Source: Amphiscolops sp. MND2022 (Eukaryota). Taken from it: DNA of 64,000 nucleotides. Of this stretch, positions 3,725 through 57,436 are shown piece by piece. The DNA is taken from assembly GCA_964187785.1 (NCBI GenBank), contig OZ076409.1, positions 63,304,001 through 63,368,000 on the forward strand, written 5' to 3'. The notes under the pieces were generated by a model, which saw nothing but the letters and a program-made list of their open reading frames with translations, was not told the DNA's origin and made no database searches. Position 1 is the stretch's first letter, and each line of letters starts with the position of its first letter. The position numbers and the translations under genes were made by a program.

Positions 3725-5674
3725 TGTCGCAGGCTGCCGCCTGTGACGGCACTATGATTACGACAACAAGCAATGACCAAGAAGTCATACCCGGAACGCT
3801 GCCGACTTTTTAAGAATAAAACTGCTAAAACTTTGGAAACTGTTTACATCATGTATTTTTGTTTGTATTTATTTTTTGGTCATTTATACTGGATGTTCAA
3901 ATTAGTCTGTTAATATTACGATTTGGGATTAGCCAAATCAGTTCGTTGATGTAGTAACTGAATTAAATTGCAAAGTTGTATTGATGCTGTAGCAAACAAT
4001 AAGAGAGCAAGTTAACCGCGAGAAGGAAACGTGTTCGAGTGCGGAAACGTCCCTTCTCGGTGATATAACTCACTACAGTTGTGCTAGCCAATCACGTGCT
4101 GTAATTCTTGCTGTACTATTGTTGTATTTATTAATTGGCCGGTTAAGGCCGCCTGACGAAATTCCACTCTCACTGCTCACTACTTTGGTCAAACGGCCGG
4201 ATCCGGCCGTGAAGCAATAATGAAAAGGAACTAACTTATTACGTCAATACTTCATTAGTAATAATACAATTGTTCTTTCATGTAGTTTAAATGTTCATTG
4301 TTGATAATATGAAGCTTTGTTTAGTATTTGGCCGAGTAAGGCCCATTGAACTAATATATATTGTTTCAACTGGTACTCTGGTCAAATGGCCGATTGTGGC
4401 CATTTCATGCATATTTGTGTTTATTGTTCAGTTAACCAGATATTAACCCGGAACTAACATGAATTCATCTCTGAAACAAATGAAGGTGCTTATGGTACTA
4501 TATCATCTGCGTGATCCAAGCATATGCAAAATAGACGAATAAGGCCATTTTCCTTCACTTCCCTGTTGTGCTGTCTGTACTTACGGATTTAAGCCTATTT
4601 CGGTTTCAGCATGAAATGTATTTTCATGAATAGTGGATTCATACCATAGTCCTTATGTGCAGTTATACATTCCATTCTCAGTGTAGTATATAATAAATCT
4701 TGTGTCGGCACGTGCCTCCACTTCACTTTGCGTGAGTTATGTAAACGAAGGTATTTGTTGACACTTTGATGTACATGCCTTAGTCGGTAGTTCGTTTGAA
4801 GCTACTATTTTGACTATATGACCCATAAATGCCATTCCCTAGATGTCCCCGAAGATATGTGAATATCAGGGTTTTCATCATGGAGCTAATAGTCATATGA
4901 TACTATCAACCCAACTAGTTATGTAAGGAATGTGACTGTCATTCCCTAAAGGGTATAAATACTGTTATCCCATTGGGGAAATCATTAATTCCTTCCATTT
5001 TACTCTAGTTAAGTTTAATCTACAAACGGCACCGCTATTATTTCCGTGTTGATTAATTCATTATTGACTCGGGACTGTTTCAATGCCAACCACTAGAAAG
5101 CAAAAGAAAGCTAGAAAGTCTAGAGGACTTGAGATGTTATCAGATATTGAAAATCTGGATATCATGTTAGGCGAAAACCATTTTGATAAAAATGAGAGAA
5201 ATGAAAGTGTGAATAGTAATCAGGCCGGTAGGCCAGAAAGCTTATTTGGAGATGAACTTGGAGATGAGAATGAGAATGGGTTCCCAAACTCAAGAAATAA
5301 TGGACCAAGTCCAAATACCGAATTAGGCCACAATTCAATCAGAGAGTGTTCAAGCGTTGAGATCAATAGATTGTCAAGCGAGTTAAATTCACGTATATCT
5401 CGAGAGATGGACGAAATGATGAATAGTGTCAGTGTTCAGATTCAAAGAGCCATAAATGAGGCAATTAGTAGCCAAATTTTGCCTCAAATCCAAAATGTAG
5501 TTATGGCCGGATCGGGACAATTGACCAAAGAGAGATGGAACGTTCCGGCCGAGAGACCGGAAGGATATTCCGAAGCACTGCAAAACTCAGAACTTAGGAA
5601 CAATTCTAAGAATAAACAAACCAACGACCGCCCCAAAGACGGATTCACAAGCACTAACTCTCGTGCTTACGACA
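3725..5674 (+). repeat. 5' LTR of element 1 (1950 bp, TGTCG...CGACA)
   Basis: Terminal inverted TGTCG/CGACA, followed directly by TGG. The same end point is seen in element 2, where the 3' LTR meets flanking DNA. Confidence 0.9.
4954..4986 (+). promoter_or_regulatory. Putative LTR promoter: TATAAA plus Inr-like TCATT
   Basis: TATAAA at 4954-4959 and TCATT at 4982-4986 (~30 nt spacing), ~100 nt upstream of the gag ATG. Element 2 has TATATATT at the equivalent place. Confidence 0.6.
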
Positions 5675-6801
5675 TGGTGACAGGAGAAAACGAATCTCCA
5701 ATCGAAGTTCCTGAGTTTCTCACGGGACGAATCTCATCCAGAAACCATCTCGACAGGTCCTATGAGGATATTAACCTTGACACGACGATCCCAGCGCAAG
5801 AGAGAAATGCTCCGGCTACTCAAACTGACCCTATTACTCGACTAGCAGATGTCTTGACAACGATGCAGAATAGGCCGACAGCACAACAACTCACTATACG
5901 CCCAGTCAATTCAAACACAATGACTTTTGATGGCAAGAGTGAAAAATTTGAGCTGTTTGAGGACCTGTTCCACACGATGATCAAGATGCAACCGGAAATG
6001 ACGGAACAGATGAAAATAAATCACTTCCACTCATTGCTGAGGAAGAATGCTCTCCAAACCTTCCGGAACATCAGCTCGAGCAATAGACAGACTTTAGAGG
6101 ACGTATTGGTAATATTCAGACGAAAATACGTCAAACCTGAATCACAAGCAACTGCCAAACATAAATGGCACCGTCTAGTCTTCGATCCCAACACGATGAA
6201 ACTGCCAGATTTCCTTGAAGAATTAAATCAAGGGGCAGAAAAAGCATTCGGGGATCACGCGCAGAAAATGATTGACAGTTTGCTCTACGCAAAACTGCCA
6301 CCAAAACTAAAGCGGTCTGTAAACATGGCCAGACTCGAAAACGGCTCTTATGACGAAATAGTTGCTCATTTAGAGAGAGAGTTAGAACTAAATGCCCTTG
6401 AGGAATCAGACGACCTACCAATGGCCACAATGACCTCCTCGACAACAAAATCCAAGACTCCTCTAACTACTGGGCAAATGTCGGACATCACTTGCAACTA
6501 CTGCAAGGAGAAGGGCCATATAGTCAAAGACTGTGAAAAATTGAAAAAGAAAAAGGAAAAAGATGCCCAACAAGGCAAACAGACTCAGAAAAAGACGTAT
6601 CCGGAGTGTGGTACTTGTGGTAAAAAGAACCACCCCGAGGAAAGATGTTGGCAAGGTGCTGGTGCGCATCTCAAACCCAAACGCACCAGACCAGATGATG
6701 CTAACGATGGCAAACCGAATTCAAAGGCGCAGAAACCACAAAACAAACCAACATCTTCCAACTCACAGACCTCATCTTCCAATGATGAGTCAAAAAACTA
6801 A
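5083..6801 (+). CDS. gag: Gag (572 aa) whose first ~197 codons lie inside the LTR
   Basis: Capsid-like region (FDGKSEKFELFEDLF...) and two CCHC knuckles, CNYCKEKGHIVKDC and CGTCGKKNHPEERC. Confidence 0.93.
   Translation: MPTTRKQKKARKSRGLEMLSDIENLDIMLGENHFDKNERNESVNSNQAGRPESLFGDELGDENENGFPNSRNNGPSPNTELGHNSIRECSSVEINRLSSELNSRISREMDEMMNSVSVQIQRAINEAISSQILPQIQNVVMAGSGQLTKERWNVPAERPEGYSEALQNSELRNNSKNKQTNDRPKDGFTSTNSRAYDMVTGENESPIEVPEFLTGRISSRNHLDRSYEDINLDTTIPAQERNAPATQTDPITRLADVLTTMQNRPTAQQLTIRPVNSNTMTFDGKSEKFELFEDLFHTMIKMQPEMTEQMKINHFHSLLRKNALQTFRNISSSNRQTLEDVLVIFRRKYVKPESQATAKHKWHRLVFDPNTMKLPDFLEELNQGAEKAFGDHAQKMIDSLLYAKLPPKLKRSVNMARLENGSYDEIVAHLERELELNALEESDDLPMATMTSSTTKSKTPLTTGQMSDITCNYCKEKGHIVKDCEKLKKKKEKDAQQGKQTQKKTYPECGTCGKKNHPEERCWQGAGAHLKPKRTRPDDANDGKPNSKAQKPQNKPTSSNSQTSSSNDESKN
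5675..5686 (+). other. Primer binding site TGGTGACAGGAG (tRNA-Leu-like)
   Basis: Starts TGG directly after the LTR CA. Matches 11/12 to the complement of the typical metazoan tRNA-Leu(CAG) 3' end (TGGTGTCAGGAG). Identical in element 2 (33684-33695, -). Confidence 0.75.
6792..6798 (+). other. -1 ribosomal frameshift slippery heptamer A AAA AAC
   Basis: Sits in the gag frame immediately before the TAA. The -1 frame is open from here into pol (KKLTSPRLQYNQ...LMGYP). Conserved in element 2. Confidence 0.85.
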
Positions 6802-9800
6802 CTTCGCCACGACTCCAATACAACCAGCTAATATCTGTCCGACAATACATCAGATCGGACCCTCCAACGCAAACTTTCCACCAATACAACCAACAATTGA
6901 TGGGCTATCCCTCTGTTGTCTGGCAGCAGCAGATGGAAAAAGCTACCATTATTACTTACAATAATACCCATTTGTTCCAAAAACCAATTCCTGTATGGGA
7001 TCCTGATTACACATCTGCTTTCAATAGCCGATTCAGGCCCATTCCCTTGGTAGACGATTACAACCCTACCTACATAGACCCCGATTATGGACGAGATCCC
7101 TATTGGGACACGGAACTCTACAACCAAGATCTGTTACAATTCCAATACGTCATTGATGATATCGAACTCTACAACAAATCAGCCCATGAAAATCCTCCAA
7201 TCACCCACAACAAGAAAACTAGAGCATTGATTGAAACCTGGCAAATGAATGATGGCACAAGCCACCCGGTGTTCCCAAATCCCCTGGGGACCGAGAATAC
7301 TGAAAACAGTGGTGAAATCACGCCACAATCATTATTAGATGAAAAACAATTCCAAAATGTACTCATCACCAGAGATGGTGAACCAGACTGTATACCCCTG
7401 TCAACCAACATCAATCTCAAATGCAAAAAACGCATGCTTTATTTCCCAATGGACTTTGGGGAGTTGACCATAGACGGACTAATTGATACTGGGGTACTAT
7501 CCAGTGCGATCCCAGAAATGGACCTCCGGAAAATTCGCCTTTTATCACCACAATCTGTTATCCGAGAAGGTCCGCCTCCGAATTTCCAAATCATGGTCGC
7601 TAATGGGCAATTGGAAACTCCTAAGAGTACCATAGAGCTCAAATTTGAAGTTGGTGACATTGAGTTTCATGAGATTTTCATAGTCATGGAACATTTGACA
7701 GGACCGATCATTGGACTAATGTTCCTGCAGAGAAATCATACAGTTCTGAACATGAGACAAGGAATCTTGAACTTCCCGTTCTTTTCAATGCAGCTCAAAA
7801 CAGCTGATCATAAATACTCGAACGTGCTAGAGCCAATTCTAAACCCTACTGAAATAACCATTCCGCCAAACGACAGAGTCCTGATTAGGACCAATTCCTT
7901 ATTATACCCTGAAAACACGGTCACAGGAATTTTGCAACCGAGCGACCTTCTCCATGAAGAAGGCGACATCACATTCTGTCCAGCCTTGGTCACCTTGAAT
8001 GACGGCAATATATCGATACCAGTGAATAACTTCACAGACCACCCTTACAAACTCAAAAAGGGACTCCATATTGCTAGTTTTTCAGTCATGACGCCAGAAC
8101 AAATGAAATATGTCAAACCGGTAGACCCGGCATCAACCTGGCATTTGTTGCAAAACGACCAAGAGCAAGCAGCCCATTACGTCAGTAGCCTGATCAAGAC
8201 GAACAGAAATTCACAAAACCCCGAAAACTACTGGTTCCCAACTCCGGAAAATCCAGGGAATCCAGAAGAACACACTCCAATCCAGAAAAGAGTCCTCCGC
8301 GAGCTACAAGCCCTACAGGACCTAGAATCCCTTGATCCCACGAAAGACGAGGAATCTAGGGAAAAATTCTTAAGAAATTTTGATTGGAAAGACTCCACCC
8401 TAACCCTGGAAGAGAAAACCAAAATTGAAGAATTGCTAGTGGAATTTCACGACATTTTTGCGAGACACAGATTTGATATAGGCATGAATGAGGAATTCAA
8501 GGTGAAATTGACACCTAAGGACGATTCCCCAGCCTATAGCCAAAGCCTCCCTGTGCCAATAAACTTGAAGGAGGACATATTAGTCGAATTAGCCATGCTC
8601 CACAAATATGGCATAATAACTACTTTACCGTTCTCGAAATACGCCAGCCCAATATTCGCCCAAAAGAAACCAAATGGGAAGCTACGACTTTTGGTTGACT
8701 TGAGAAAAATCAACAACCTTATCTCGGATGATTATATCAACAATAATCACCCTGTTAGCACCTTGGTTGACGCTGCCCAACACTTGGCAGGCAAAAAACT
8801 GTTCTGTAAATTAGACTGTTCACAGGCATACCACTGCCTACCAATGGCCGACCAACGCTCAATCGAAATGTTGGCTTTCAATTTTGCCAGCCGTACATTC
8901 GCGTACAGACGCTTGGCACAAGGCCTTAGTCGGTCACTATCCGCATTCTCGAGTTTCATGAGGGAATACCTCGACAAAGTCATTAAAGCGGATCAGTGCG
9001 CCCAGTATGTGGACGATATCGGCATCGCAGCCAATGATGTTGAGCACCTCATAATGAACCTGAGAGCAACATTCAAATGCATTCAGGAAGCAGGCCTTAA
9101 GCTGACAATGCACAAATGTCACTTTGGCGCAAAAGAAATTGATTTTCTCGGACGGACTATTACCCCGCAAGGCGTCAAACCTCAGAAACAGAACGTGCAA
9201 AACTTTCTAGAAAAGACTAAATTCCCAAAGTCGAAAAAGGCTTTGCAGCGCTACTTGGGATTCTTGAACTACTACAGAAATTATGTCCCAAGACTATCTG
9301 AACGCCTTGCTCCATTCTACAAGATGCTCAAAAGTGACGAAAAGGTCCTAGTATCGAAAGAATTAGTCCAACAATTCGAAGAAATCAACAAGGCACTTGA
9401 CAAATGTTGCGACTTAGCCTTACAACAACCCATTCCTAACAAGCAGATTGCACTCATGACAGATGCAAGTTTCGGAGCTGCAGGATACGCAGTACTCATT
9501 GAAAATGATCCGAGTCAGAAATTCACGTCAATCCGCAAATCATATGCACCGGTCGCTTATGGTTCAAAAACCTTCACCCCAGCCCAGATAAAGATGTCAA
9601 TTTATGCAAAAGAATTTCTTGCGATTTATTTCGCATTCAAAGAATTCGGGCATATTTTCTGGGGAGCGCCGAAACCGATCATAATCCTAACCGACAACAA
9701 AGCAGTAACAAGATTCTTCCAAACGAAAATAATACCCCCAGCCCTGTGGAATGCATGCGATTATGTGATTCAGTTCAACTTTGTCATAGCGCATATTCCG

Positions 9801-12002
9801 GGAGCACAGAACACAGCAGCTGACTATTTGTCCCGATTGGAGGCAGATCCGAAGGATAAACTAGTCATGAAAATCCGAGAAGACGTGCAAACTTTACCCA
9901 TTGAGATAAATGTTCAATCTGCGGGGGTATCACAGGAAGAACAAATATTCTATACGCATGATGATGACGAGACAGAGGAACAGTATTGGGCAAGAAAAGA
10001 AGCAATCAGGAAAAATCCAATGACTGATGAGCCCACTGTTACCATAGAAACTCTGTCAACCAATTTGGTCAAACAACAACCAGACATCCAAGTCCGATTA
10101 AAGAAAACAAACCAGATAATCATCGAGCAGTCCAAAGATGCAGTATTGCAACAACTGAAGGCAAAGCTCCTTCATGAAGACTATTCAGAAAACATACTGC
10201 AACAGGATGCCCGATATAGACACTATGCAAATAATCTGGAACGAATTGTACTCAAGGACGAAATCCTGACGAGGCAATATTTTGATGAAACAGGGAATGT
10301 TAAATATCATCAAATTTTGCTCCCGCAACACCTACTTCGGGAATTGCTCCACTCCCTTCACGGGACAGCGCATAAACATCCCGGAATTTCAAAAATGTTG
10401 CAGGAAATCAGACAAAGGTATTACTACCCTAGCATGGCCAAACACGTCAAAAAGTGGGTAGAAGGGTGTGAACAATGTGCCAGAGACAAAAGAGTCCCTA
10501 ACGCAACAATCACACCTGAGCTGCTCAACTTGCCCGAATGGGACCTTGGACCTGAAGACGCCATGCAGATTGACCTATTGCCGAATCTTCCCCCAAGTGG
10601 AGGGTACGAAAATGTTCTAACGGCAATTGATGTTTTCTCCAGATATTTGTTCGCTTACCCTCTTACAGACGCATCAGCAATCAATGTGGCAAAAGCGCTC
10701 ATTGACATAATGACCAAGCATGCATATCTGCCAACGACTCTTATTACTGATAAGGGTACTGCATTCACTTCTACGATTATTGCGGAGGTTACGCAAATTT
10801 TGGGCATTACACTCAAATGTGCAACGACAAAGCACCCGCAAACAATTGGGAAATTAGAGCGGACCCATGCCTCATTAAAGACAAACCTCAAAATGGCATG
10901 TGGGGAATACCGCCGACAATGGCATAAATATTTGCCATTAGCAGTACTTAATCATAATACGAGTTATCATGCCAGTATTGGTTGTGAACCAACCAGAGTA
11001 TTCCATGGCAGAATTCCCTATAACATTCTGGATCACAAGCTTGGAAATAATCCAAACGAAAAGATCAACCCTACAACTGAATTTGCAGAAGAAATCCAAA
11101 ACCGAACAAAAATCCTAATTGACAAAACGAAACAGAACATTATGCAGTCGTACATCAAGTACAAAGAATATTACGACCGCAAAGCAAAAGCTGCTCCATT
11201 GAAGGAGAATGATTACTGTTTCGTCTTACAGCCGAAAGCGGATCATCAAGGATCAAAAATTCCATTTCGCGATTACCGTTGGGTTGGACCATTTGTAGTC
11301 CAAAAGGTTTTGCCAAATGAAAACTACATAGTACGAAGGATCAATACGAACAAAACTCAAATTTTGCATCGCATTCGCCTTAAAAAGTTTATTCCCAATC
11401 AACCGCTTGAGGACAATTTCCGAGAACAACGTCTGCAGCCAGACGAAGAAATTGTCATTCCGCAAGACGACCTATACGTTATAGCGTGGGAAACAGATTT
11501 TGGAGAGCAGCTAGTTACACGAGGCAGCGAGCCTATTCCGACTAGCGCGCCGAATGGCGAACAGCCGAACACGGCAGAAACGAATGCAAATGACGTAAAC
11601 GAGACCGAAGCGGATTACATAATCACGCGAGAAGAATTAAACAACGACAACGCGGCACACAGCCGGAATAAACGCTTAAATGATGACGTCACTGAAAGAA
11701 ATAAAGCTACTGCAGTGACAGAAAATGCCAAATCTGATTGGCCGATTCCGGCCGTTTCCCCAAAAAACCAAGAAAATTCTTTGCCGAATACGGCAGATGG
11801 ACCGGAAAATGATGAAACGTTTTCAGAAAGAAATTCAATGAATGAAAACGATGCACAAACCTCTCCAAAAAGGGGGGATGATATTATCGTGCCCGAAATA
11901 TCTGAAAGCGACGCTAGAAATGAAAGTCTGAGCCCTAGAGGAGGGAAATATAATCTCAGGCCTAACCCTAATCCAAACTACTCAGAAGACTTCAGATACT
12001 AA
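6792..12002 (+). CDS. pol: Pol polyprotein: aspartic protease, dUTPase-like insert, RT, RNase H, integrase
   Basis: LIDTG protease; YVDD RT; TDAS and TDNK RNase H; HHCC (H..HPG...CEQC) and D-D-E (QIDL, TDKG, LERTH) integrase. Uninterrupted ORF 6897-12002, extended upstream to the slip site. Confidence 0.96.
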   Translation, partial: KKLTSPRLQYNQLISVRQYIRSDPPTQTFHQYNQQLMGYPSVVWQQQMEKATIITYNNTHLFQKPIPVWDPDYTSAFNSRFRPIPLVDDYNPTYIDPDYGRDPYWDTELYNQDLLQFQYVIDDIELYNKSAHENPPITHNKKTRALIETWQMNDGTSHPVFPNPLGTENTENSGEITPQSLLDEKQFQNVLITRDGEPDCIPLSTNINLKCKKRMLYFPMDFGELTIDGLIDTGVLSSAIPEMDLRKIRLLSPQSVIREGPPPNFQIMVANGQLETPKSTIELKFEVGDIEFHEIFIVMEHLTGPIIGLMFLQRNHTVLNMRQGILNFPFFSMQLKTADHKYSNVLEPILNPTEITIPPNDRVLIRTNSLLYPENTVTGILQPSDLLHEEGDITFCPALVTLNDGNISIPVNNFTDHPYKLKKGLHIASFSVMTPEQMKYVKPVDPASTWHLLQNDQEQAAHYVSSLIKTNRNSQNPENYWFPTPENPGNPEEHTPIQKRVLRELQALQDLESLDPTKDEESREKFLRNFDWKDSTLTLEEKTKIEELLVEFHDIFARHRFDIGMNEEFKVKLTPKDDSPAYSQSLPVPINLKEDILVELAMLHKYGIITTLPFSKYASPIFAQKKPNGKLRLLVDLRKINNLISDDYINNNHPVSTLVDAAQHLAGKKLFCKLDCSQAYHCLPMADQRSIEMLAFNFASRTFAYRRLAQGLSRSLSAFSSFMREYLDKVIKADQCAQYVDDIGIAANDVEHLIMNLRATFKCIQEAGLKLTMHKCHFGAKEIDFLGRTITPQGVKPQKQNVQNFLEKTKFPKSKKALQRYLGFLNYYRNYVPRLSERLAPFYKMLKSDEKVLVSKELVQQFEEINKALDKCCDLALQQPIPNKQIALMTDASFGAAGYAVLIENDPSQKFTSIRKSYAPVAYGSKTFTPAQIKMSIYAKEFLAIYFAFKEFGHIFWGAPKPIIILTDNKAVTRFFQTKIIPPALWNACDYVIQFNFVIAHIPGAQNTAADYLSRLEADPKDKLVMKIREDVQTLPIEINVQSAGVSQEEQIFYTHDDDETEEQYWARKEAIRKNPMTDEPTVTIETLSTNLVKQQPDIQVRLKKTNQIIIEQSKDAVLQQLKAKLLHEDYSENILQQDARYRHYANNLERIVLKDEILTRQYFDETGNVKYHQILLPQHLLRELLHSLHGTAHKHPGISKMLQEIRQRYYYPSMAKHVKKWVEGCEQCARDKRVPNATITPELLNLPEWDLGPEDAMQIDLLPNLPPSGGYENVLTAIDVFSRYLFAYPLTDASAINVAKALIDIMTKHAYLPTTLITDKGTAFTSTIIAEVTQILGITLKCATTKHPQTIGKLERTHASLKTNLKMACGEYRRQWHKYLPLAVLNHNTSYHASIGCEPTRVFHGRIPYNILDHKLGNNPNEKINPTTEFAEEIQNRTKILIDKTKQNIMQSYIKYKEYYDRKAKAAPLKENDYCFVLQPKADHQGSKIPFRDYRWVGPFVVQKVLPNENYIVRRINTNKTQILHRIRLKKFIPNQPLEDNFREQRLQPDEEIVIPQDDLYVIAWETDFGEQLVTRGSEPIPTSAPNGEQPNTAETNANDVNETEADYIITREELNNDNAAHSRNKRLNDDVTERNKATAVTENAKSDWPIPAVSPKNQENSLPNTADGPENDETFSERNSMNENDAQTSPKRGDDIIVPEISESDARNESLSPRGGKYNLRPNPNPNYSEDFRY

Positions 12003-12244
12003 AGATTGAATTCTTCCCGAAAATGGGAGTTCTTTCTTATTATCTTTTTCTGTTTTTTTTCAGTCCCTCTAGTATCTTTTGAATAAATAATGGGACGAAC
12101 GAAGAACCCCTTTCAAAATAAATAAATACGGGGGTGAAAGATACAAACAATGAGGAAACAGAAATCAAAGGCAAACGAAAGAATAAATACAACAAAGAAT
12201 AAACAAAGTTTGTGAACTAGCGTACATAAATACATATGTACAAG

Positions 12245-15200
12245 TTACTTCTTAGAAGTTGAGGGTGTGGGAACACTGGTGACAGATGAACTAGAAGACC
12301 GAGACTTTGTAGTGCCCATCCGTCTTCTCTTTGTACTACTTGGGATCTGTAAGGCAGACTGCTCAGGTATAGGAGAAACTTCTTGGGGATCCAAGCTGAC
12401 AACGTTCCCTTGAGGGCCTGCTGCCGCTACTTTGTAGGATGAAAGTAAGGACTTATAGATTTTGGATCGCCCAAATGTGTCCACATAATCCCAAGGATCA
12501 TAAGTGGGGGCGAATGCTGCCCTTCCGAAATCAGAGGCGAGCAAGGAGAATTTTGGCAGACTTGAATCCTGACTGCAGAATGGGATTGAATCGGGAACCC
12601 CAGACAAGTAACTTTGTCCTGGCAACACGACATCAGTGAACCTTCCATGAGGGCCTACAAGACCAATGTTACCGAAAGTAACAGGAGGGAATTCTCTACT
12701 ACAAGCAGTAATGCATAGACAACACAACTTGAAGAGACGGAGAAGTCGTGGTTTAGCACGGAGGAAATCAACTCCCATGAGGAATTCGATCAAATCAGCA
12801 GATAAATCGGTGAAGTTGAAGTCAGCTGGATAAGTAATTCGCAAGTGGTCTATCAGACCGAGGTATTCTTCGCGATAAGAAGATTCATCAGCACTTGTGA
12901 CCCAAGATCGTAGCAGGAAAGTGTTATAGAGTACCTCAAAATGCCGCAAAGAAACATCAATTGGACGGCTAAACAAGACCTGAGGATTGAAAGCTGCCAA
13001 GCCTTGGACCAAGTGGGAATTCAGCCCCACCTGATGTAGCACTCCCTCTATCATGTGCTTGATGAAACTGAGTGCCTCCTGGACAAAATCGCTCTTCACT
13101 TCATTGACGGTCTTCTGGATTGTGGCCTTATCAGGTTTCTTGCCAACTAAGAGCCCTTCAGCCTTGATTTTACTGGCTGCAGCAACTTTCGAGGAGAGCT
13201 TCAGCCGAATCAGGAAGTCCTCCACCTCTTTGAATTTTCCTTCCGATGTTTTGAATCCCATGAGATGGAAACAGGAATTTTCTAAGGGGACAGTATCAGG
13301 GGTGAAACAGCGAGAACAGAGCCGGTACACAAATTGGCTAGCCTCACCAAACATGTAGAAGGATGCGTCACGTCGCTGATGGAGATTGACTACGAAGCTG
13401 GATAAATCTGCAACCATAAAAGGAAAATGTCCGATACAAGCAGAACAAAACAAAAGGAAACTACAAGAAACCACTAACAATCGCTGACAAGTCGTTGGAA
13501 AAACTCGAGTTTAACAGTGATAAACTCGTCACAAATGAGCGACCACTCAAAACTCTGTACCTGTGGAACACAAAGACCGTGTTAACAATCAGTAAGAAAT
13601 TAGTGGCCTGTAAAAGACCAAGGGAACTCTGAATCAACCACGAGGTGGAACGATTAGGACGAAAGACTTACTCTGCTTCGGACTCCTTGACCTTCTTGTC
13701 TGGCCGAGTGAACGGTTAGATAAGTGCGCACATTCTTCCATTGGTTGACCAGCTCTGTGCACAGTGTGGGCAGGCCTTTAAGGTCAAGTTTGCATGAAGA
13801 GATGGCCTAGAACAATAGAACGGGAGTGAAACGTATGCCTTTATTTTGAACCCGTGATTCACCTTGACTGTCATACCAACCCGATGATGTTCGGGGGACT
13901 CTAGGACCCAGTCCTCTGTTTGAGACCCTCCCAATGAGACCAAGAGGGCTTGCAACACTGAAAAGAAGTCGATCTTTCCAAAGACGCTGTAACTTCCTTT
14001 ATGCATCAGTGTGAACAGTGACAAGTGCTCGAATCGGGAACAGCTTTGGACTCCTCTGGGGAAGTAACTGCAATGGTCAAGAGTGCGTACAAAGTCCACT
14101 GAGCATCCAGAACACGCCACGATGTCTGCTCTGGTGGAGACCACGGAAAGGAACCGAGACAGTGATCCTAGCTCCCCTGTGAGTTGGGGTGATGGGAGCT
14201 TACTACGGCATGCAAACACGCGACACAACTTTTCGTCTTTCCAGAAGCGTACACTCATATGACGATAACTACCATAGTCTTCAAATTCTACTGAGAAACA
14301 TTGTTCGGCGGCTACCACCTGGGAGATGTCGTCCATTGCACAATTGAAGATATGCTGGAATATGGCCTGGAAAACACGAATACTCAATAGCGATTAATAC
14401 GACCCCCCCCTTCTTTTTCCAGCGGTCAATGAAGACTATACTTACAGTGAGACGTTCTTCGCCCCAGTCAAAATCACAAAGCGTAGCCTGGTAGTTTGTG
14501 AAGGACCCAATCCTTGCCCACAAATTGCGAAGTAAAGACAGGTCGCCGTGCGTCTGGATGTAGTCCGAGATGATACAAATTTGGGTTTTGGCACGCGAAT
14601 CAGGTGTCACCAGCGCTGTAGAGCTTCCTTTAAGGAAATCGTCATAAAAGGGGAAACGCTCCCCTATGTCCACCAATTCGGCATGGATAAATTCCGGGAG
14701 CTCTTTGGCAAGCTCAATTTTAGTCAACACCTTCCCGTTCCGGCCTCGTACTCTGTGTTGAACTTTTCCACTGATGGGGTCGACACTTCGAAGGTGTTCA
14801 TATCTCCACCTCTGATCGCGCCTCAAATGCTTCTCTGACCTGTGGTGCCGTATGATCTCGAAAGTGCCTTTAGTTTTTATAGAGATATTTTTCTTGCAGA
14901 TGTGGCACCACACCATGCAAGGGTTGTGGAGAGGGTCTGCAGGCCCAGAGATGAAGGACCGCGTCCAACCAATTTTGGAGAAAAACTCCTCCCGCATGGG
15001 GACCCCACGTTGGACTGTTCCAGATTTCCTTTTAGTCCTCTTAATCTGAGGGGCCGTGTTGGTCCTCTCCTCAATTGCTGCTTCCCTGATTGCGGACAGT
15101 GTCTCATCGGGACAACTCATTTCACTGGAGGTTCCAGCGTCAACAATTTTGGCCGGGATCTTTGCTTCTGAGGCTCGTTGTTTGGACCCATCGGCAGTAG

Positions 15201-16389
15201 ATCTCTGGAATGACTCGGCAATTAAAGCCATTTCTGCTGCACTATCCGATTCCCCATAACTCACCGACATGTCTTCTCCTGCTGAAGTACCTGAAGAACC
15301 TGGATCAGGTGGACCAATGTACGAATCACTCTCAGTTCCTCCCTCGCTAGTGTCACTGTCCATTCGAGGGTGGGGAGTTTGGGCTCGGTGCCGAGACCGG
15401 AAATGGGCAGTCCGTGACTCTGCGGTCGCTGGGGCCCCCCTTACTGCTCCTAAAACCATCTTCTCCATGGTTGTGAAAGATTGACTCAGTGTTTCATTGG
15501 TGAGAGTTTTGAGGAGGTGATATAATTGGGGCTCACTAAAAGCCACTGTGGGATGTCCAACTGGTAAAGAAAATGGAGGCGTTTCATCGAAAAATTGTTT
15601 GAGTATTGCCCTGCTCCTTCCTGACAATTCCTGCGTGGGGACACCGACCGTACGTCCTGAAGTTCCGGGTTCCGCCTGAATGGTAATCTCGGTAGCGGGA
15701 CCTGATTCGTCTCCTCCCTCCGTTCCTGACTCTGGATCGCCAAAGGCAACATTTCGGGTGTGATGATATCCCAACCTACTTATCTCATCTTCAGTCTTTT
15801 CAGCGTCACTTAATTCGTTCGGGAGTATCCTTTGATCCGACAATCCGGGCAATGCTGGGACCTCATATATGGAAGATGAGGTGTCTTCGCCGGCAGAAAG
15901 GTGTGTTCCAGAATGTTCTCTGATGAGGGATGTCGTAACTGGGACCAACTCTGGAAGGCTGCTCTCCGCTGTGGTAGTAATCCTGAGAGCTGACTCGAGG
16001 GAGGTCAAACTAGAAGGGTGAGCCTCACTTGGACCGACTGGTACTGGGGTACTCGTCCGGACTTGAGTTGCGATATCCGAGCCCGTAGCTGCTGATTCTA
16101 GGGTCTGTTGGACTTGGACCACAGTGTTTCCAGCTTGATCTGTCCCAAAATATGGGGATTTCTCTTTCTGACACACAACGCTGGCAGCGTATGCGTTAAC
16201 GTCTTCATCACTATCATCTTTTGAGGATGCCCGTTGGTCAAATTGATTTTCAGGCCTGGGACCCTCGCCATCAATTGCGGTAGAGGCTTGGACAAGGGTT
16301 GGATTTGGTGTCGAATGAGTTTCTTCTACTGGATTCTCTAAACAGAAAGAGATGAATTTTCGCGGCGAGCTTCCTTGGAAAGAATCCAT
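12245..16389 (-). CDS. Five-exon antisense accessory gene (~1269 aa): disordered N-terminus, BED-like zinc finger, inactive hAT-transposase-like body
   Basis: Exons 16389-14446, 14366-13881, 13806-13672, 13560-13479, 13407-12245. GT-AG introns of 79, 74, 111 and 71 nt (phases 0,0,0,1) join the separate ORFs into one frame. An alternative intron-2 donor at 13862 adds 6 aa. Zinc finger WCHICKK...IIRHHRSEKH. Confidence 0.82.
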
Positions 16390-17482
16390 TAAGCCGCATT
16401 AGAAATCTTCCGGAAGTGTTTGAAACGTGAACGAAACGTGCTATCACGTATTAGTTGATGGAAACAGGAAGCGCCTATCGGACAAATTAGCTCTGATCAA
16501 GTTAACTTTGTTCAAATTATAAAATCCAAACCAACCTGAATCAGAAGACATCCTGCCGTAGAAGAGCTGGATTTCGGGAAACAGTCCTAGATCGGCTTGG
16601 ATAATTGGGGGATAAGGCCGAACTCGGCTAAAGGTGAAGAGAAGTTGGAGAGGATCCGAAGGGAATAGCTGTCGATGGAAGCGAAAGCAAGAGCGATCGT
16701 ATACCGTTATCAAAGACTCAGACGAATAGACAATTCGAATATAACAATTATGTGAGTAAAAAGGAATTGGAATATAATAATAATCAAAGAATTGAAGAGT
16801 TGGAGTTCGTGGCTGAAGATTATTACCAGACTAATATTATGGGATTATTTACATATTTATTCTGTACATGGAGTCTGCCAGCGAAATGTACAAAGATTAC
16901 TTCATTATTTACAACTTATGGAATTATTGGCCGATTACGGCCGTTTACCCTATTTCGGTTTATCATCTTGTTCCATTTCGTTTGTTATCCTAATTGGGAC
17001 TTCCGTTATTATAGTTACTCAAATTGTTATTTCCGCTATTTTGAATTATTTTAATTTATCATTTTCGCCATTTTATTACTTAATTTTTCATTTTATCGGA
17101 GCTTAACTCTGATTGGCTGAAGCCGCGTTGAAAGAATTTAGCGGCGCGTGTCGTTAATAGCCTTCAAGCGACCCGTTAATTACCCACTTGAGATGGAGAG
17201 AATTGACGTTAATAGCTCAAGCGTCGTTCACACCTCTTCAGGTGATGGTGTTGATGACGGGTAAACATCGGTATATCAAAGGCGGCCGACTAATTATGGA
17301 ATTCCATTCAGGAATGTTTATGTCGGATCAGGACAATTTACCGAAGATTCAACCGCCGAAAACGAATTGCCGGGAAATGGCCCGAGTCGGCTAAATTCTC
17401 AAATTTGTTGAATTCATTCTATCTCAAACTTTGATTCTGACTAGTTGCCTCCTCAAGCTTCAAAATAGCTAAAAAACTCATA

Positions 17483-18265
17483 ATGAGCAAGTACAATCTG
17501 GCAAGAAAGTTATTCGACTTGGACTATGATTTTGACGAATCTAACGAATCTGTCATCTACATATCTAGTAGTGAGAGTGAAGCCTCAGATTGGGAAACCG
17601 ATTGTTCCACTGATACGGAACAACTGGTAGCCAGGATCGAGAGAGAGGTAATCTCCAGCCCCATGTTAATAGGGGGCCGCATTATGACTGTAGACTTGCC
17701 CGAAGAAGAAGAAGTTACAGAAGCTGGCCCGAGCTCCAGACAGATGCAGGCGGACGTGACCCCAAAGTTGGACCACAAATATTTCGATAAAGAAATGTGT
17801 TATGCTCCCCCAAAGAAGATAGGGAAATCTCGGATAGAGCTCTGCAAAACTCTACTTCCTGTCATGGAGTCACCTCTGTCACCGCCCCCTCATGAGAGAG
17901 GACCGTCTGTGGATACCCCGCTAGTAGTGGCCGATTCCGGATTTAGGGCTTCATACCACATTCAAAACACGAGGCCGTACGAGAACGTGAGCGAAACACG
18001 TTATACCGGATGTATGGTCTGCGGCCGCTCAGTAGATGCGATCAAGAAACAGCGAGTGGACTGGTACATGGACAGATCTACACCGAGAGATGAGCCAGAA
18101 TTCATAACAAAGCTGAGGAGAGAAGCCTACGAAAACGGATTGAACGCAGGTTCGTTTCTTTTTCTTGCACCCGCAGTGTCGCAGGCTGCCGCCTGTGACG
18201 GCACTATGATTACGACAACAAGCAATGACCAAGAAGTCATACCCGGAACGCTGCCGACTTTTTAA
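17483..18265 (+). CDS. Sense accessory ORF (260 aa, unknown function) ending inside the 3' LTR
   Basis: Acidic N-terminus and CMVC motif. Clear homologue in element 2 (27845-28628, -). AATAAA at 18267-18272 right after the stop. Confidence 0.8.
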   Translation: MSKYNLARKLFDLDYDFDESNESVIYISSSESEASDWETDCSTDTEQLVARIEREVISSPMLIGGRIMTVDLPEEEEVTEAGPSSRQMQADVTPKLDHKYFDKEMCYAPPKKIGKSRIELCKTLLPVMESPLSPPPHERGPSVDTPLVVADSGFRASYHIQNTRPYENVSETRYTGCMVCGRSVDAIKKQRVDWYMDRSTPRDEPEFITKLRREAYENGLNAGSFLFLAPAVSQAAACDGTMITTTSNDQEVIPGTLPTF

Positions 18266-19966
18266 GAATAAAACTGCTAAAACTTTGGAAACTGTTTACA
18301 TCATGTATTTTTGTTTGTATTTATTTTTTGGTCATTTATACTGGATGTTCAAATTAGTCTGTTAATATTACGATTTGGGATTAGCCAAATCAGTTCGTTG
18401 ATGTAGTAACTGAATTAAATTGCAAAGTTGTATTGATGCTGTAGCAAACAATAAGAGAGCAAGTTAACCGCGAGAAGGAAACGTGTTCGAGTGCGGAAAC
18501 GTCCCTTCTCGGTGATATAACTCACTACAGTTGTGCTAGCCAATCACGTGCTGTAATTCTTGCTGTACTATTGTTGTATTTATTAATTGGCCGGTTAAGG
18601 CCGCCTGACGAAATTCCACTCTCACTGCTCACTACTTTGGTCAAACGGCCGGATCCGGCCGTGAAGCAATAATGAAAAGGAACTAACTTATTACGTCAAT
18701 ACTTCATTAGTAATAATACAATTGTTCTTTCATGTAGTTTAAATGTTCATTGTTGATAATATGAAGCTTTGTTTAGTATTTGGCCGAGTAAGGCCCATTG
18801 AACTAATATATATTGTTTCAACTGGTACTCTGGTCAAATGGCCGATTGTGGCCATTTCATGCATATTTGTGTTTATTGTTCAGTTAACCAGATATTAACC
18901 CGGAACTAACATGAATTCATCTCTGAAACAAATGAAGGTGCTTATGGTACTATATCATCTGCGTGATCCAAGCATATGCAAAATAGACGAATAAGGCCAT
19001 TTTCCTTCACTTCCCTGTTGTGCTGTCTGTACTTACGGATTTAAGCCTATTTCGGTTTCAGCATGAAATGTATTTTCATGAATAGTGGATTCATACCATA
19101 GTCCTTATGTGCAGTTATACATTCCATTCTCAGTGTAGTATATAATAAATCTTGTGTCGGCACGTGCCTCCACTTCACTTTGCGTGAGTTATGTAAACGA
19201 AGGTATTTGTTGACACTTTGATGTACATGCCTTAGTCGGTAGTTCGTTTGAAGCTACTATTTTTACTATATGACCCATAAATGCCATTCCCTAGATGTCC
19301 CCGAAGATATGTGAATATCAGGGTTTTCATCATGGAGCTAATAGTCATATGATACTATCAACCCAACTAGTTATGTAAGGAATGTGACTGTCATTCCCTA
19401 AAGGGTATAAATACTGTTATCCCATTGGGGAAATCATTAATTCCTTCCATTTTACTCTAGTTAAGTTTAATCTACAAACGGCACCGCTGTTATTTCCGTG
19501 TTGATTAATTCATTATTGACTCGGGACTGTTTCAATGCCAACCACTAGAAAGCAAAAGAAAGCTAGAAAGTCTAGAGGACTTGAGATGTTATCAGATATT
19601 GAAAATCTGGATATCATGTTAGGCGAAAACCATTTTGATAAAAATGAGAGAAATGAAAGTGTGAATAGTAATCAGGCCGGTAGGCCAGAAAGCTTATTTG
19701 GAGATGAACTTGGAGATGAGAATGAGAATGGGTTCCCAAACTCAAGAAATAATGGACCAAGTCCAAATACCGAATTAGGCCACAATTCAATCAGAGAGTG
19801 TTCAAGCGTTGAGATCAATAGATTGTCAAGCGAGTTAAATTCACGTATATCTCGAGAGATGGACGAAATGATGAATAGTGTCAGTGTTCAGATTCAAAGA
19901 GCCATAAATGAGGCAATTAGTAGCCAAATTTTGCCTCAAATCCAAAATGTAGTTATGGCCGGATCG
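18177..19966 (+). repeat. 3' LTR of element 1 (truncated by assembly gap)
   Basis: Nearly identical to 3725-5514. By eye I found two substitutions (4812/19264 and 5037/19489). Confidence 0.95.
19535..19966 (+). CDS. Copy of the Gag N-terminal ORF inside the 3' LTR (runs into gap)
   Basis: Identical translation to 5083-5514. Confidence 0.75.
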
Positions 19967-20166
19967 NNNNNNNNNNNNNNNNNNNNNNNNNNNNNNNNNN
20001 NNNNNNNNNNNNNNNNNNNNNNNNNNNNNNNNNNNNNNNNNNNNNNNNNNNNNNNNNNNNNNNNNNNNNNNNNNNNNNNNNNNNNNNNNNNNNNNNNNNN
20101 NNNNNNNNNNNNNNNNNNNNNNNNNNNNNNNNNNNNNNNNNNNNNNNNNNNNNNNNNNNNNNNNNN
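19967..20166. other. Assembly gap (200 N)
   Basis: N run. The sequence after it is not the expected LTR continuation. Confidence 1.
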
Positions 20167-21959: not shown

Positions 21960-22116
21960 CCTACTCACCGTCAGCCTTTACCTTCTTTCTCAAAACCACC
22001 TACTTACAGCCTAAGCAGTTTATAATTGTAAAAGCGTTCAAAGATCATCTAGGAAACTGGAACTAATACTGACATGCTCTGGGTTTTTTAGCTAACTATG
22101 AAATCGAAAGCATGTA

Positions 22117-25100: not shown

Positions 25101-25437
25101 TCACCCTCAAGACGCGGAAAACTTTATTTTTATTTACAGAAAACCTCAAAATCTAAAAATTGCGGAAAATATTTTTCGAAAATTAAATTCCAAAAGCTCA
25201 TTGAAAATTTTCTCTTTTCTCATTAAGTCGCACAGTGCCGAAAAAATGAAAAGGGGACAGCTATAACAGAAACAATAGATCAGGCGTTTCCTTTAAAATG
25301 GGCTAAGATGAATCTTTTCTTTTCTTCGAACTTCTTTGCTTTTTTATAGTGCATTGGCTATTTTTGAGCCTCAAATTTATGTAGTTGTAAAACAGTTTGC
25401 GGCGGAAAATGTCTCGCTGCTCAGTGGGCGTCTCGTT
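22117..25437 (+). mobile_element. Long non-autonomous Helentron/HINE-like repeat (family B) with internal tandem arrays
   Basis: Reverse-complement homologue of 60081-63153. Subterminal TTATTTTCCGCC ... GGCGGAAAAT. Ends GTCTCGTT. Degenerate ~120-140 bp internal repeats. Confidence 0.6.
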
Positions 25438-26185
25438 CTGTATTCAAATCACACTCTTTTGCTGCAAAATTTAAAAGTTCCACTTTTTCAAAACGTTCAA
25501 GTAGGATGATATATATAAATAATTTATCCTGACGTTACTACAACCCAGTTTCGAAGTTTGAACCCGATTCACTATATGAATTGATCACGTATTTATTTTG
25601 ATAATGAAACCATTTCATGACAAATGTTCAGAGGCATGCAGGGTTCTTAAATTTTTATATTATATTGGAAAGATTTGAATTTTTAGAATAACTCAAATTA
25701 TTCATGAATTATTTGGAATCAGAGGAACGGAATAAGATCCACGAATTAGATCAAAATCGAAAACGTGAATTAGACCTAAAAGTAACTTGGTTTCGTCTTA
25801 TTCTTGTTTTAGGTACTTTTCTTGTACATTGGTAATCGAAAAATAGAGTAAAGTAGAAAACCGAATTCTATCTAAAGGAATAAGATCTAAAATGACATGC
25901 TAAACTTCGAAAAGAGGAACAAGATCTAAAATTGACTTGAATAAGATCTGAAACTCCGAAGTGGAATAAACTAGATCCGAAGAAAAAATTATTTGAAGTA
26001 TAAAACATGCCTCTGATATGTCCTAAATTCCTTTAGTGCCCCCTGGGGCCGCTTATCTTCCCATCTTGCTAGTAGTCAAACGGGAGCAAAGACCTAGCGG
26101 GAACAGAGATCGCGAAGCGATCACAGTGGTGAGAGCTAGTCTTTGCAACGGCGAGGGCGAGCATCCAGACATCGGATTTGCCCCG

Positions 26186-27933: not shown

Positions 27934-28628
27934 CTGCGGGTGCGATAAAAAGCAAACTACCTGCGTTCAATCCGTTGATATAGGCCTTCCGTCTCAATTT
28001 TGTGAATTCGGGTTCGTCACGGGGGGTTGAACTTTCCATGTACCAATTGATCATTTCTTCCTTGATTTCGTCTACTGATCGTCCACAGACCATGCACTCC
28101 TTGTAGAGCTTCTCGCTGACGTTTTCTTATGGCATCGTATTCTGCACGTGGTAGGAGGTGTGAAAGGTTCCCATAACCATGTGAACTAGGGCAGTGTCCC
28201 GACTAGGCCCTCTCTCATGTTCCGGTGATGACATTGGCGTTTCAAGAACGGGCGATATCGTTTTGCAGAGTTCTATGCGCGTCTTTTCGAACTTCCTTGG
28301 CGGAGCATACCACTTTTCTTTGTCGAAGTATTTAAGGTCCAGCTTTGGTGTCACATCTTCTTGCGCTTGGGATGAACTCGGCCCTGCTCCCGCCTCATCT
28401 CCTTCGGGATCGTCCATTGTCTTGAATCGGCCACCGATTAACATGGGGCTAGATATAACCTCCCTATCGATTCGGACTATTAGTTGCTCGGTGTCCGTAG
28501 AACAATCAGTTTCCCAATCTGAAGATTCGTCTTCGCTGCTGGATATATAGATCACTGATTTATCAGTTCCGTCAGAGTCACAATCTTCTAAGTCGAACAG
28601 TTTTCTAGCAAGATTAAATTATGCTCAT
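27845..28628 (-). pseudogene. Frameshifted homologue of the 260-aa sense accessory ORF
   Basis: SDWETDCSTDTEQL, CMVCGRSVD and APAVSQAAACDGT shared with 17483-18265. Confidence 0.88.
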
Positions 28629-29691: not shown

Positions 29692-31319
29692 ATGGATTCT
29701 TTTCATGGACGCATACCGCCTAATTTCATCTCTTTTCTTTAGAGAATCAAACTACTGAAGATGCCAAGACACCAGCCAACACTTCTGCCAATGCCCCACT
29801 CACTGATTCTCCAACTAACGTGGAACCACAAATTCAAGACCCGATTACGACTCAAGAGACAACTCACCATCGGGTGGAAGGCGTCACTTCTACCCACAGT
29901 GCAGATAGTGATGCAGAGATGTGACAGCGTACGCTGAGTCCATGGTCCGACAATAAGAGAGTGCACAGACGCTAAGCCAGTCACAAGAAGACGTCACTCA
30001 CACAGAGCCAACTGTAGGTGAAGCCCCAAGAGTCTCAGGTGATTCCTCAACACCAGTCGCAGCAGAGGACAGGAGATCAAGTACACCGCTAGCATCTGAT
30101 GAAGAAGAAACCCCAAACGTTGACCTGTCCGCCTTGGAATCAGCTTTCCAGGTAGTCATGGCCTCTGACTCTCAATTATCGGAGCTCGTTGATCCCGCTC
30201 ATTCTGGCAACAACACCAATGGCTATTCACCTGCTCAACATGATAGTGAAGCTGTATCTTCCGTCTGTGATGCTCCATCTCTTCCTGGGGATGAGTGTAA
30301 AGTCCGCTATTTAGCCAACCAGGCGAAGATGATGGGGGGACTGAACAGTCAAGCTTGTTAGCACTAGTAGCCTTAATGGACGTCGTCCATTCTCTCATGG
30401 ATCTGAGACCGAAAGAGGAGACGAGACTGGTTCGGGGCTCCTTGTTCCTGGTTCCAGTAAACAGCCCCCTACGAACGTCCCATCACAAAGAGAACCCCCA
30501 CGTCTTTCCAGGAGAAGCCGCGCTATCCTGAAGGAATACTTCGATGAATCTCCATCAACTCGACTCCCAGTAGGACATACCACCGTGGCCGTTACTGAGC
30601 CACAGGTTTATCACCTCTTTAGGGTCCTTACCGATGAAACCCTTAGCCGAGCACTTTCCACCATGGAACGGATGGTAGTCGATGCTGATCGGGGGAACCC
30701 GACTGTCGCCCCTTCTCGGACTGCTCATTTCTATTCTGCTAGACGTGCCCAATTTCCTGGACCGGGCAATGATGGAGATTCAAGTGGGAGCGAAACTGAA
30801 AGCGAAGCAGTGTTGGTAGCTAAGGACTCTGAACTGTCCAGTTCAGGTGAGACAGGAGATTCCCCATACTATGGGGAAAGTGACAGCGCCACGGAAATGG
30901 ACCTCATATCGAAGTCTTTCAAGAAGACAGCTGATACGCAAGGCACATCATTGCCCAAGACGCCCATTTCGAATGCTCCAGGAGAATTGGGGACTGACAC
31001 ACTAGAGTACAGCAGTCAAGATGCCACACTTTTCGAAATCAGAGACCAAGCTCGTGATACAGCCATTGCCGGACCGTCAAAACCCAAGAAAAAGAAGGGC
31101 AACAAGAAACTCTCTGGACGAGGTGTACCCATGCGAGAAGAGTTCGTTTCAAAAATCGGATGGACTAGGTTCTTCATTTCTGGGCCCTCTGACCCACTCC
31201 AAAATCCCCATATGGTTTGGTGTCACGTCTGCAAGAAGAACTTTTGATCTAGTTGTTGTAGATCTAGATGTTGTAGATCTAGACACCATCGTACTGAACG
31301 TCATCTGCGCCGGGACCAG
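29692..31319 (+). pseudogene. 5' remnant of the antisense zinc-finger/hAT-like gene in element 2
   Basis: MDSF start, EPQVYHLFRVLTDETLS, GVPMREEF.SKIGWTR.FISGP.DP, WCHVCKKN and RHHRTERHLRRDQ all match element 1. Frameshifted. Confidence 0.88.
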
Positions 31320-32578
31320 TTTATAAGAGTGGTCTGTGAAATTGTTGACAGGTATCGATATACTGCCATCATTCAGGGTGACCAAAGCTGGGCAAAAGGT
31401 GATGTCACCTTCTTCGTGTAGAAGGTCACTAGGTTGTAATATCCCAGTAACAGCATTCTCGGAATAAAGTAGGGAGTTGGTCCTAATTAGGACTCTGTCG
31501 TTTGGCGGAATGGTGACTTCTATGGGGTTAAGTATTGGTTCTAGCACGTTGGAATAACGGTGATCAGCTGTCTTGAGATGCATCGAAAAGAACGGGAAAT
31601 TCAAAATTCCTTGTCTCATGTCCAGAACTGTATGATTTCGTTGAAAGAATATTAGTCCTACGATTGGTCTCGTTAGGTTCTCCATCACTATGAAGATTTC
31701 ATGGAACTCAATATCACCAACTTCGAATTTGAGCTCTATGGTACTCTTGGGAGTTTCTAATTGTCCATTTGCGAACATTATTTGAAAGTTCGGAGGCGGA
31801 CCTTCACGGATAAAAGATTGTGGTGATAAAAGTCGGATTTTCTGTAGGTCATTTCACGCATTGCACTGGATAATGCTCCAGTGTCGATTATGCCGTCTAT
31901 GGTCAATTCCCCAAAGTCCATCGGGAAACATAGCATGCGTTTTTTGCATTTGAGGATGATACTGGTCGAAAGTGGTATACAGTCTGGTTCAACTTCTCTA
32001 GTGATAAGGATATTTTGAAATTGTTTTTCATCCAATAATGATTGCGGAATTGGTTCAGCACAGGTTTCAGTATTCTCGGTTCCCAAGGGGTTTGGGAACA
32101 CCGGATGGGTGGTACCATCATTCATCTGCCAATTTTCAATCAACGCTCTGGTTTTCTTATTATGTGTTATTGGACGATTTTCGTGGACTGTGGTTTGGTA
32201 ATGGGCTATATCATCTAGGACGTACTGGAACTGAAGTAGGTCCTGGTTGTAGATCTCGATGTCCTAATAGGGATCACTGCCAAAGTCTGGGTCAATATAT
32301 GTTGGGTTGTAGTCATCTATTAAGGGAATGGGCCTGAACCGGGTAGTAAAGGTGTTTGTGTAGTCAGGATCCCAAACAGGAATTGGTTTTTGGAACAAAT
32401 GGGTATTGTTGTAAGTTGTGATGATAGCTTTTTCCATCTGTTGCTGCCAGACAACAGAGGGATAACCCATCAATTGTTGATTGTATTCGTGAAAGGTTTT
32501 TGTTGGAGGGTCCGACCTGATGTATTGGCGGACGGATACAAGTTGGTGGTATTGGAGTCGTGGCGAAGTTAGTTTTTT
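31320..32578 (-). pseudogene. pol: Truncated, disrupted pol of element 2 (protease and dUTPase-like part only)
   Basis: IIDTG motif, an in-frame stop and frameshifts. Ends at DHSYKL at the deletion junction. Confidence 0.9.
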
Positions 32579-57000: not shown

Positions 57001-57436
57001 GAAGAATGAAATTCTCCGAGTATGATTCAACACTATTCCAGCAAAGTAGAATATTCGACACAAAACGTACTAGTAACGCATCAACGGATCTGCTTTTCAA
57101 CCAGAACCTGGCAATATAAAAAAGAAAGAGAACAAGTTTAAAATATATCAATGGCGACAACAAAATTCCATTGTGATAGACGAATATTTAGAAAAAATTT
57201 TTGCTATGAAATCAAAAAAAAATATCATGACCAGTAGTTGCATTCACCGACGCATAGCTCGTTGAAACCAACTCCAAAAGGGCAAACAAATGGATCTCGT
57301 AGGCATTTTGATTGTTTTTAAAACCCCTCGGCCGACAATTTTTTTAACCAATATCCAGATATAAGGGTTGAAAATTGAGATTATCTTCAAAACTAACACC
57401 CACTGTCACAATTTTTCCAAAACAACGAATATTGAA

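Follow-up and report, generated by a model that had tools for sequence, protein, structure and literature searches.

A Ty3/gypsy long terminal repeat (LTR) retrotransposon from Amphiscolops sp. MND2022 carries, antisense to its own gag and pol, a five-exon gene that is probably derived from a hAT DNA transposase. The element lies in a 64,000-nucleotide stretch of contig OZ076409.1 (assembly GCA_964187785.1, forward-strand positions 63,304,001 to 63,368,000), hereafter the window, in whose coordinates features are given unless stated otherwise. We favour, at a probability of roughly 0.55, a reading in which a clade of class I elements, with thousands of copies and families diverged to ~27% identity, relies, for its own DNA-binding trans-regulator, on a hAT transposase that bears introns, lies antisense and is catalytically dead, and that is swapped as a cassette between families.

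A selected antisense gene with four introns

The gene occupies the minus strand between pol and the 3′ LTR, and its spliced frame of 3810 nt encodes 1269 amino acids (aa) with a single, terminal stop. An earlier sequence-only reading of the window had proposed that four short GT-AG introns join three open reading frames (ORFs) and two small exons into such a frame, and the gene model bears this out. Exon 1 (14446..16389; aa 1-648) encodes a Ser/Thr/Glu-rich N-terminus of ~480 aa, which includes a basic patch (aa 450-454) and gives way to a strongly conserved part; a C-x2-C-x16-H-x4-H finger, BED-like by pattern, lies at aa 495-521 (14827..14907). There follow intron 1 (14367..14445; 79 nt, 69-222 nt in relatives), exon 2 (13881..14366; 162 codons), which encodes a putative degenerate RNase H-like core, intron 2 (13807..13880; 74 nt), exon 3 (13672..13806; 45 codons), intron 3 (13561..13671; 111 nt), exon 4 (13479..13560; 27 codons and 1 nt), intron 4 (13408..13478; 71 nt, phase 1) and exon 5 (12245..13407; aa 883-1269), which encodes an all-helical domain and then a Ser-rich tail. 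All four introns run from GT to AG, and no plus-strand frame of at least 150 aa overlaps the exons. The gene converges on pol across a gap of 243 bp; at its other end, a minus-strand segment of ~450 bp (16390..16839) accompanies it in close copies and is a candidate antisense promoter or 5′ untranslated region. The window copy offers a second possible in-frame donor for intron 2 at 13862, which is not the site matched in relatives, and a donor at 13876 breaks the frame; we place the donor at 13880 because exon 2 has 162 codons with GT at that point in five of six divergent copies.

Judged by how its copies vary, this is a real gene, selected and with a conserved four-intron structure. The sequence-only reading had suggested measuring selection and intron conservation across genomic copies. 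Of 40 matches in the 1.07-Gb assembly, 30 loci were extracted, and the 29 best copies besides that of the window (85-99% identical in DNA) were aligned. Only codons with a single differing position were counted, and a variant found in at least three copies was called shared. Shared variants comprise 419 synonymous changes, 138 non-synonymous changes and no stops, giving a ratio of non-synonymous to synonymous change (dN/dS) of 0.10 overall. By part, the ratio falls from 0.20 in aa 1-480 to 0.01 in aa 481-648; exon 2 and aa 883-1200 both stand at 0.05 and exons 3-4 at 0.06, so that the core lies at 0.01-0.06. In the two shifted minus-strand frames, by comparison, the ratio is 1.8 (8 stops) and 2.0 (29 stops). 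Variants private to one copy have a dN/dS of 0.44 and include 22 stops, as expected because copies decay after insertion; the spliced frame is open in 11 of 30 copies. Splice dinucleotides are intact in 113 of 116 introns across the 29 copies. No shared indel of frame-breaking length falls within the 3810 exon nucleotides, whereas the 335 intron nucleotides hold 12. Chance ORFs are ruled out by this exon-intron contrast together with the dN/dS of shared variants.

The structure also holds at far greater distances. In six copies picked from the 52-59% identity tier, the exons project to the same 162, 45, 27 and 386 codons except where a frameshift intervenes, while the introns measure 69-222, 95-101, 107-111 and 67-70 nt. 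By hand count, 19 of 24 introns have both splice dinucleotides precisely where projected, the other five belonging to copies with a frameshift or point change; the introns thus keep fixed places in divergent families. In two distant database proteins (P0008 and P0078) the exon 4-5 junction is gapless and intron 4 is absent. Three others (P0026, P0130 and P0051) are translated through intron 4 in frame, and in seven genomic loci (L024-L030) this intron approaches exon-like conservation (0.89-0.97).

Cargo of a Ty3/gypsy clade

That the gene is heritable accessory cargo of a large Ty3/gypsy clade, and not a nested transposon, is strongly supported by its position from copy to copy. In all 30 close loci and in 5 of 6 divergent ones, the end of the gene adjoins an integrase tail encoded on the other strand. 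Genome-wide, a strict cargo motif has 740 matches (2 for the control), a looser one 4362 (control 722) and a reverse transcriptase (RT) motif of the clade 6019 (control 0). Both motif lists are complete over the first 20.3 Mb of contig C1; there, the cargo motif lies antisense and 3.0-5.2 kb downstream of 38 of 100 RT motifs, against 0, 0 and 0 in the other three geometries and a chance expectation of 0.7. Mutated copies escape exact motifs, so the figure is a minimum, and as a pairing count it does not show carriage by most copies. Matches are distributed along C1. A dozen of the loose-motif matches there share the same 21 bases (for example at 3042936, 4133127 and 4480154); they are unpaired with the RT motif of the clade and may belong to another repeat or to a distant or non-autonomous family. 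Beyond this genome, a profile search of 1.84 billion proteins returned 575 matches; among the 150 listed, those aligned over at least 190 residues are 26-54% identical, and the ten we looked up are unnamed proteins with ENA representatives. Metagenome and viral contigs yielded no related loci.

The flanks of the gene carry no terminal inverted repeats (TIRs): inverted matches reach at most one AT-rich 10-mer and direct matches at most 9 nt, consistent with the earlier observation that neither TIR nor target site duplication (TSD) surrounds it. With these absent and the position fixed across families, a nested DNA transposon is rejected. Related elements make ordinary duplications: in the ends of ten LTR pairs, taken from 47 matches listed, the TSD is 5 bp in 10 of 10, with no sequence common among them. 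A hAT-like TSD of 8 bp, hinted at by the flanks of a second element in the window (element 2), is ruled out by these 5-bp relatives. Position across loci, RT pairing, selection and 5-bp TSDs together uphold the initial view of the gene as heritable cargo.

Element 2 had been described as keeping a homologue in the same position, and this stands in part. A remnant of exon 1 only (model aa 63-530; 29918..31361, plus strand; 32-48% identity) is indeed antisense to its gag-pol, but an internal deletion cuts the gene before intron 1, so element 2 is uninformative on introns and gives no evidence for a whole intron-bearing gene; the genome-wide copies supply that point.

Mosaic elements suggest, from their sequences, that the cargo cassette is exchanged between element families. 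Two of them (G000:C11:48209638-48226158 and G000:C1:46276907-46293419) have LTRs 98% identical to those of the window element and cargo only 56% identical. The ~450 bp upstream of the ATG are 90-100% identical in 7 of 8 copies checked, after which identity drops at copy-specific points; these breaks (16840-17600), differing by copy, are consistent with frequent cassette exchange.

Evidence for hAT ancestry

The gene is probably derived from a hAT transposase, an origin supported by family assignment and by fold. In the ESM Atlas, the ten best matches that have a family all fall in the hAT family or clan, and the matches include FAM200/GTF2IRD2/ZMYM1-like clusters. A structure model of exon 5 built from a deep alignment (predicted local distance difference test, pLDDT, 86.8) aligns over 169 residues with the Hermes transposase, its residues 1-261 (12623..13405) matching 368-597 of 8edg_A at rank 7 of 48,161. 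The other rows listed in that fold search align 41-99 residues, mostly a single helical hairpin. Within the aligned Hermes range, a WW...P.LS.LA...PA.SAASE stretch falls at Hermes 540-602, and the end of the structural alignment (model 261, Hermes 597) coincides with the end predicted by manual motif mapping. Upstream of the core, the CCHH finger is placed as in hAT transposases; Cys495, His516 and His521 are present in 6 of 6 copies and Cys498 in 5 of 6. As for the BED-like finger proposed at the outset, its residue pattern is conserved in the copies, but zf-BED has no Pfam match in the ORFs of the gene or in alignment members.

Several results weigh against this ancestry. The Atlas scores are below 0.9 and rest on only 112-130 shared features, and exon 2 has no usable Atlas match. 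Pfam searches of the ORFs and of 93 plus 6 alignment members gave no hAT match, and PDB searches with five profiles (A1-A5) gave none either. Comparisons by hmmsearch and hhalign with host Ac-type hAT frames (20 loci, shallow templates) were blank, with reversed controls scoring equally, as were profile searches for an RNase H-like fold in exon 2. Further searches add little: PF05699 is above cut-off in 0 of 93 members, longer proteins in a 5.8-billion set show no hAT homology in what are weak tests, and PF14291 has 0 matches in the genome itself, where its control is likewise silent. Foldseek against PDB and viral libraries returned nothing at E ≤ 0.001, and Hermes is absent from a second Foldseek list. 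A model from a shallow alignment reached a pLDDT of 40 and its fold search was uninformative, as was a complex prediction for pieces of exons 5 and 2 (score 0.14). The hAT origin put forward by the sequence-only reading thus gains an Atlas family and a structural alignment to Hermes, and lacks homology at the level of Pfam, PDB profiles and host hAT sequences; of the profile and fold comparisons proposed with it, the weak structural match to Hermes is the positive one. Ordinary hAT transposons are numerous in this genome (150 scored PF05699 matches), and among 20 such loci fetched (L031-L050) none is similar in sequence to the cargo.

The catalytic site

The protein is probably not a working transposase. 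This assessment comes from manual mapping of residues against hAT motifs, as distinct from a scored alignment. By that mapping, the first catalytic Asp, in exon 2, is an invariant Glu (aa 677, 100%), with a second Glu (97%) two residues before it, and the second catalytic Asp is Ser in 98%. Hermes Glu 572, which we take to be the catalytic residue, maps to model residues 236-239, a Pro-rich coil with pLDDT near 60; across model columns 228-245, the mapped third position, none exceeds 40% Asp or Glu. The CxxH motif reads C-F-R-F (C in 98%); according to the available part of PMC4763223, CxxH is required for hairpin formation in Kat1 and Hermes. The suggestion that the Asp-Asp-Glu (DDE) residues and CxxH appear substituted agrees with this manual mapping, in which the first position is Glu in place of Asp. 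The invariant Glu counts against a wholly dead site, as it leaves some metal binding possible.

Origin, mode of action and competing explanations

We propose that an ancestral element acquired a hAT DNA transposon gene in antisense orientation and retained it, while the TIRs and catalytic residues of that gene were lost. Introns that lie opposite the genomic RNA strand are not spliced from it, and antisense introns survive reverse transcription because they are not removed from genomic RNA. The gene would be transcribed from its own internal antisense promoter at 16.4-17.4 kb, head to head with a second accessory ORF; the transcript would be spliced, and the protein imported into the nucleus by way of its basic patch at aa 450-454. 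There the BED-like finger and the retained transposase scaffold would bind DNA without cutting it, while the long, acidic, Ser/Thr-rich N-terminus would recruit host factors. As an activator or an anti-silencing factor, such a protein would most likely serve to sustain transcription of the element family. We give the whole chain, from hAT origin to this role, about an even chance. The exchange of cassettes among elements with 98%-identical LTRs is a point against part of it, disfavouring a target strictly specific to an LTR family.

An unlikely explanation, but one to take seriously, is that the same hAT-derived protein acts at integration, binding the ends of the complementary DNA or the target DNA and aiding import of the pre-integration complex or the choice of target. 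Holding the ends of DNA and its target is what transposase scaffolds evolved for (PMC10368747, available part), and the very strong conservation of the core and the basic patch, which resembles a nuclear localization signal, would suit this role. However, the TSDs are those of an ordinary integrase (5 bp, no common sequence, 10 of 10), motif matches are spread along contig C1, and a protein made from a separate mRNA has no obvious path into the particle.

It is improbable that the gene is real accessory cargo of some other source, a captured host gene or an orphan fold with a coincidental likeness to hAT. The blank sequence-level searches would be at home in such an account, whereas two methods independently return the family named beforehand, the structural alignment is long, colinear and ends where motif mapping predicts, and a CCHH finger stands at the expected position.

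Decidedly improbable is a role in negative regulation or copy-number control, with the protein damping transcription on element DNA or the antisense transcript itself regulating. A transcript converging on pol can form double-stranded RNA, and a dual role is discussed in PMC7264820. Purifying selection at the level of lineages, however, is easier to fit with a benefit to the carrier than with a cost, and a role of the RNA alone would not yield a dN/dS of 0.05.

A protein that still acts on element DNA as a nuclease or recombinase, its active site altered, would account for the conservation of the entire core, the invariant Glu at the mapped first catalytic position and the 97% Glu two residues earlier, but the lack of a conserved acid where the second and third positions map, of CxxH, of TIRs and of 8-bp TSDs makes it a very distant prospect.

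Relation to known systems

The nearest parallels to the proposed trans-regulator are the antisense reading frames known as aORFs (aORF-3R), which lie between pol and the 3′ LTR in the plant elements Retand, Grande, RIRE2 and PvRetro13 and in the fungal Boty (PMC7264820); their TRP28 is covered in the available part of PMC11963269. These frames share the place and orientation of the gene described here, are present in many copies and are conserved like functional genes, and they have been proposed to encode nuclear DNA-binding regulators with their own antisense promoter, as we infer for this gene. In contrast to Retand and Grande, the gene has no TRP28 (PF04195) Pfam match and has four conserved introns; the word 'intron' is absent from the available part of PMC11963269. 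According to PMC7264820, the origin and function of aORFs are unknown, their antisense and spliced transcripts remain to be sought, and an origin from a nested transposable element is unsupported because aORFs lack similarity to other such elements. The present gene points to just such an origin.

With hAT transposases (Hermes, PDB 8EDG) the gene shares an upstream CCHH finger pattern and a core of about 700 aa, with a weak, colinear structural match spanning the insertion domain and the C-terminal region. It differs in having no TIRs, no 8-bp TSD, no PF05699 match and, by manual mapping, no conserved DDE or CxxH, and in having a low-complexity N-terminus of ~480 aa and a class I carrier. ZBED1/DREF, ZBED6 and DAYSLEEPER are hAT proteins domesticated by their hosts. 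Like these and Kat1 (PMC4763223, available part), the gene keeps a transposase scaffold under purifying selection outside a mobile DNA transposon, but here the domesticating host would be another transposon, with hundreds to thousands of gene copies. HTLV-1 HBZ and HTLV-2 APH-2 (via the available part of PMC11963269) are likewise antisense accessory genes of a reverse-transcribing element, theirs being nuclear and regulatory; they have no sequence relation to this gene, whose promoter appears to be internal and not in the 3′ LTR. Extra ORFs of rotifer LTR elements (PMC5408684) and AlkB-bearing Ty3/gypsy elements of orchids (PMC12786077), as far as the available parts of these papers go, also represent fixed gene capture but involve different proteins, and the available part of PMC5408684 contains none of the whole words 'transposase', 'intron' and 'hAT'. 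By term, the available parts of PMC12786077, PMC5408684, PMC6431247 and PMC9911081 hold nothing relevant. Literature listings gave no description of an LTR element with an antisense gene that is spliced and hAT-derived; Repbase, Dfam, GyDB and most subscription papers lay outside that search, and a repeat-library entry may exist.

If the proposed origin is right, this would be a clear case of a nested-transposon source for antisense accessory genes, which PMC7264820 called unsupported. Their origin and function would become testable, because the candidate ancestor has solved structures; the finger and scaffold predict DNA binding, the target of which can be mapped. The copies show that an LTR element can keep a multi-intron gene over long evolutionary time provided that it is antisense, and annotation tools that seek only long ORFs will miss such cargo. 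The gene also poses a selection puzzle: its product, made from an mRNA of its own, should work in trans and be vulnerable to cheating, but the core has a dN/dS near 0.05 amid thousands of copies.

The carrier element and its surroundings

The carrier is a Ty3/gypsy LTR retrotransposon in which Pfam finds gag and then the order protease, RT, RNase H and integrase. Its 5′ LTR (3725..5674, plus strand, as are all carrier features below) is 1950 bp long, runs from TG to CA and has an imperfect 10-bp terminal inverted repeat; the 3′ LTR (18177..19966) is interrupted by the assembly gap (N 19967-20166), and the two LTRs show 2 differences over 1790 bp. The pol frame spans 6789..12002 from stop to stop. 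The gag ORF, with a zinc knuckle (5083..6801), starts ~590 bp into the LTR and crosses its end at codon 198, its frame continuing over the LTR end and a candidate primer-binding site (5675..5686; TGG immediately 3′ of the LTR) through 5083-5686. Because gag begins inside the LTR, each 3′ LTR likewise holds a gag N-terminal piece. In element 2, too, gag starts in the LTR and crosses its end.

The second accessory ORF (17483..18265; 260 aa) is oriented head to head with the antisense gene and extends 89 nt into the 3′ LTR. It has an acidic N-terminal half and a C-x2-C motif, a counterpart in element 2 at ~28127-28618 (minus strand) and homologous frames in 29 of 30 loci, and gave no meaningful Pfam match. 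Just before the 3′ LTR (18130-18176) there is no polypurine tract; the sequence is pyrimidine-rich with a final CAG resembling a splice acceptor, and element 2 is similar here. Between the stops of pol and of the antisense gene (12003-12244), four AATAAA hexamers lie on the plus strand and none on the minus strand. Elsewhere in the window, the regions 22100-25450 and 57400-63150 hold arrays of ~170-185 bp units and a ~2.63 kb duplication, and are mutually inverted.

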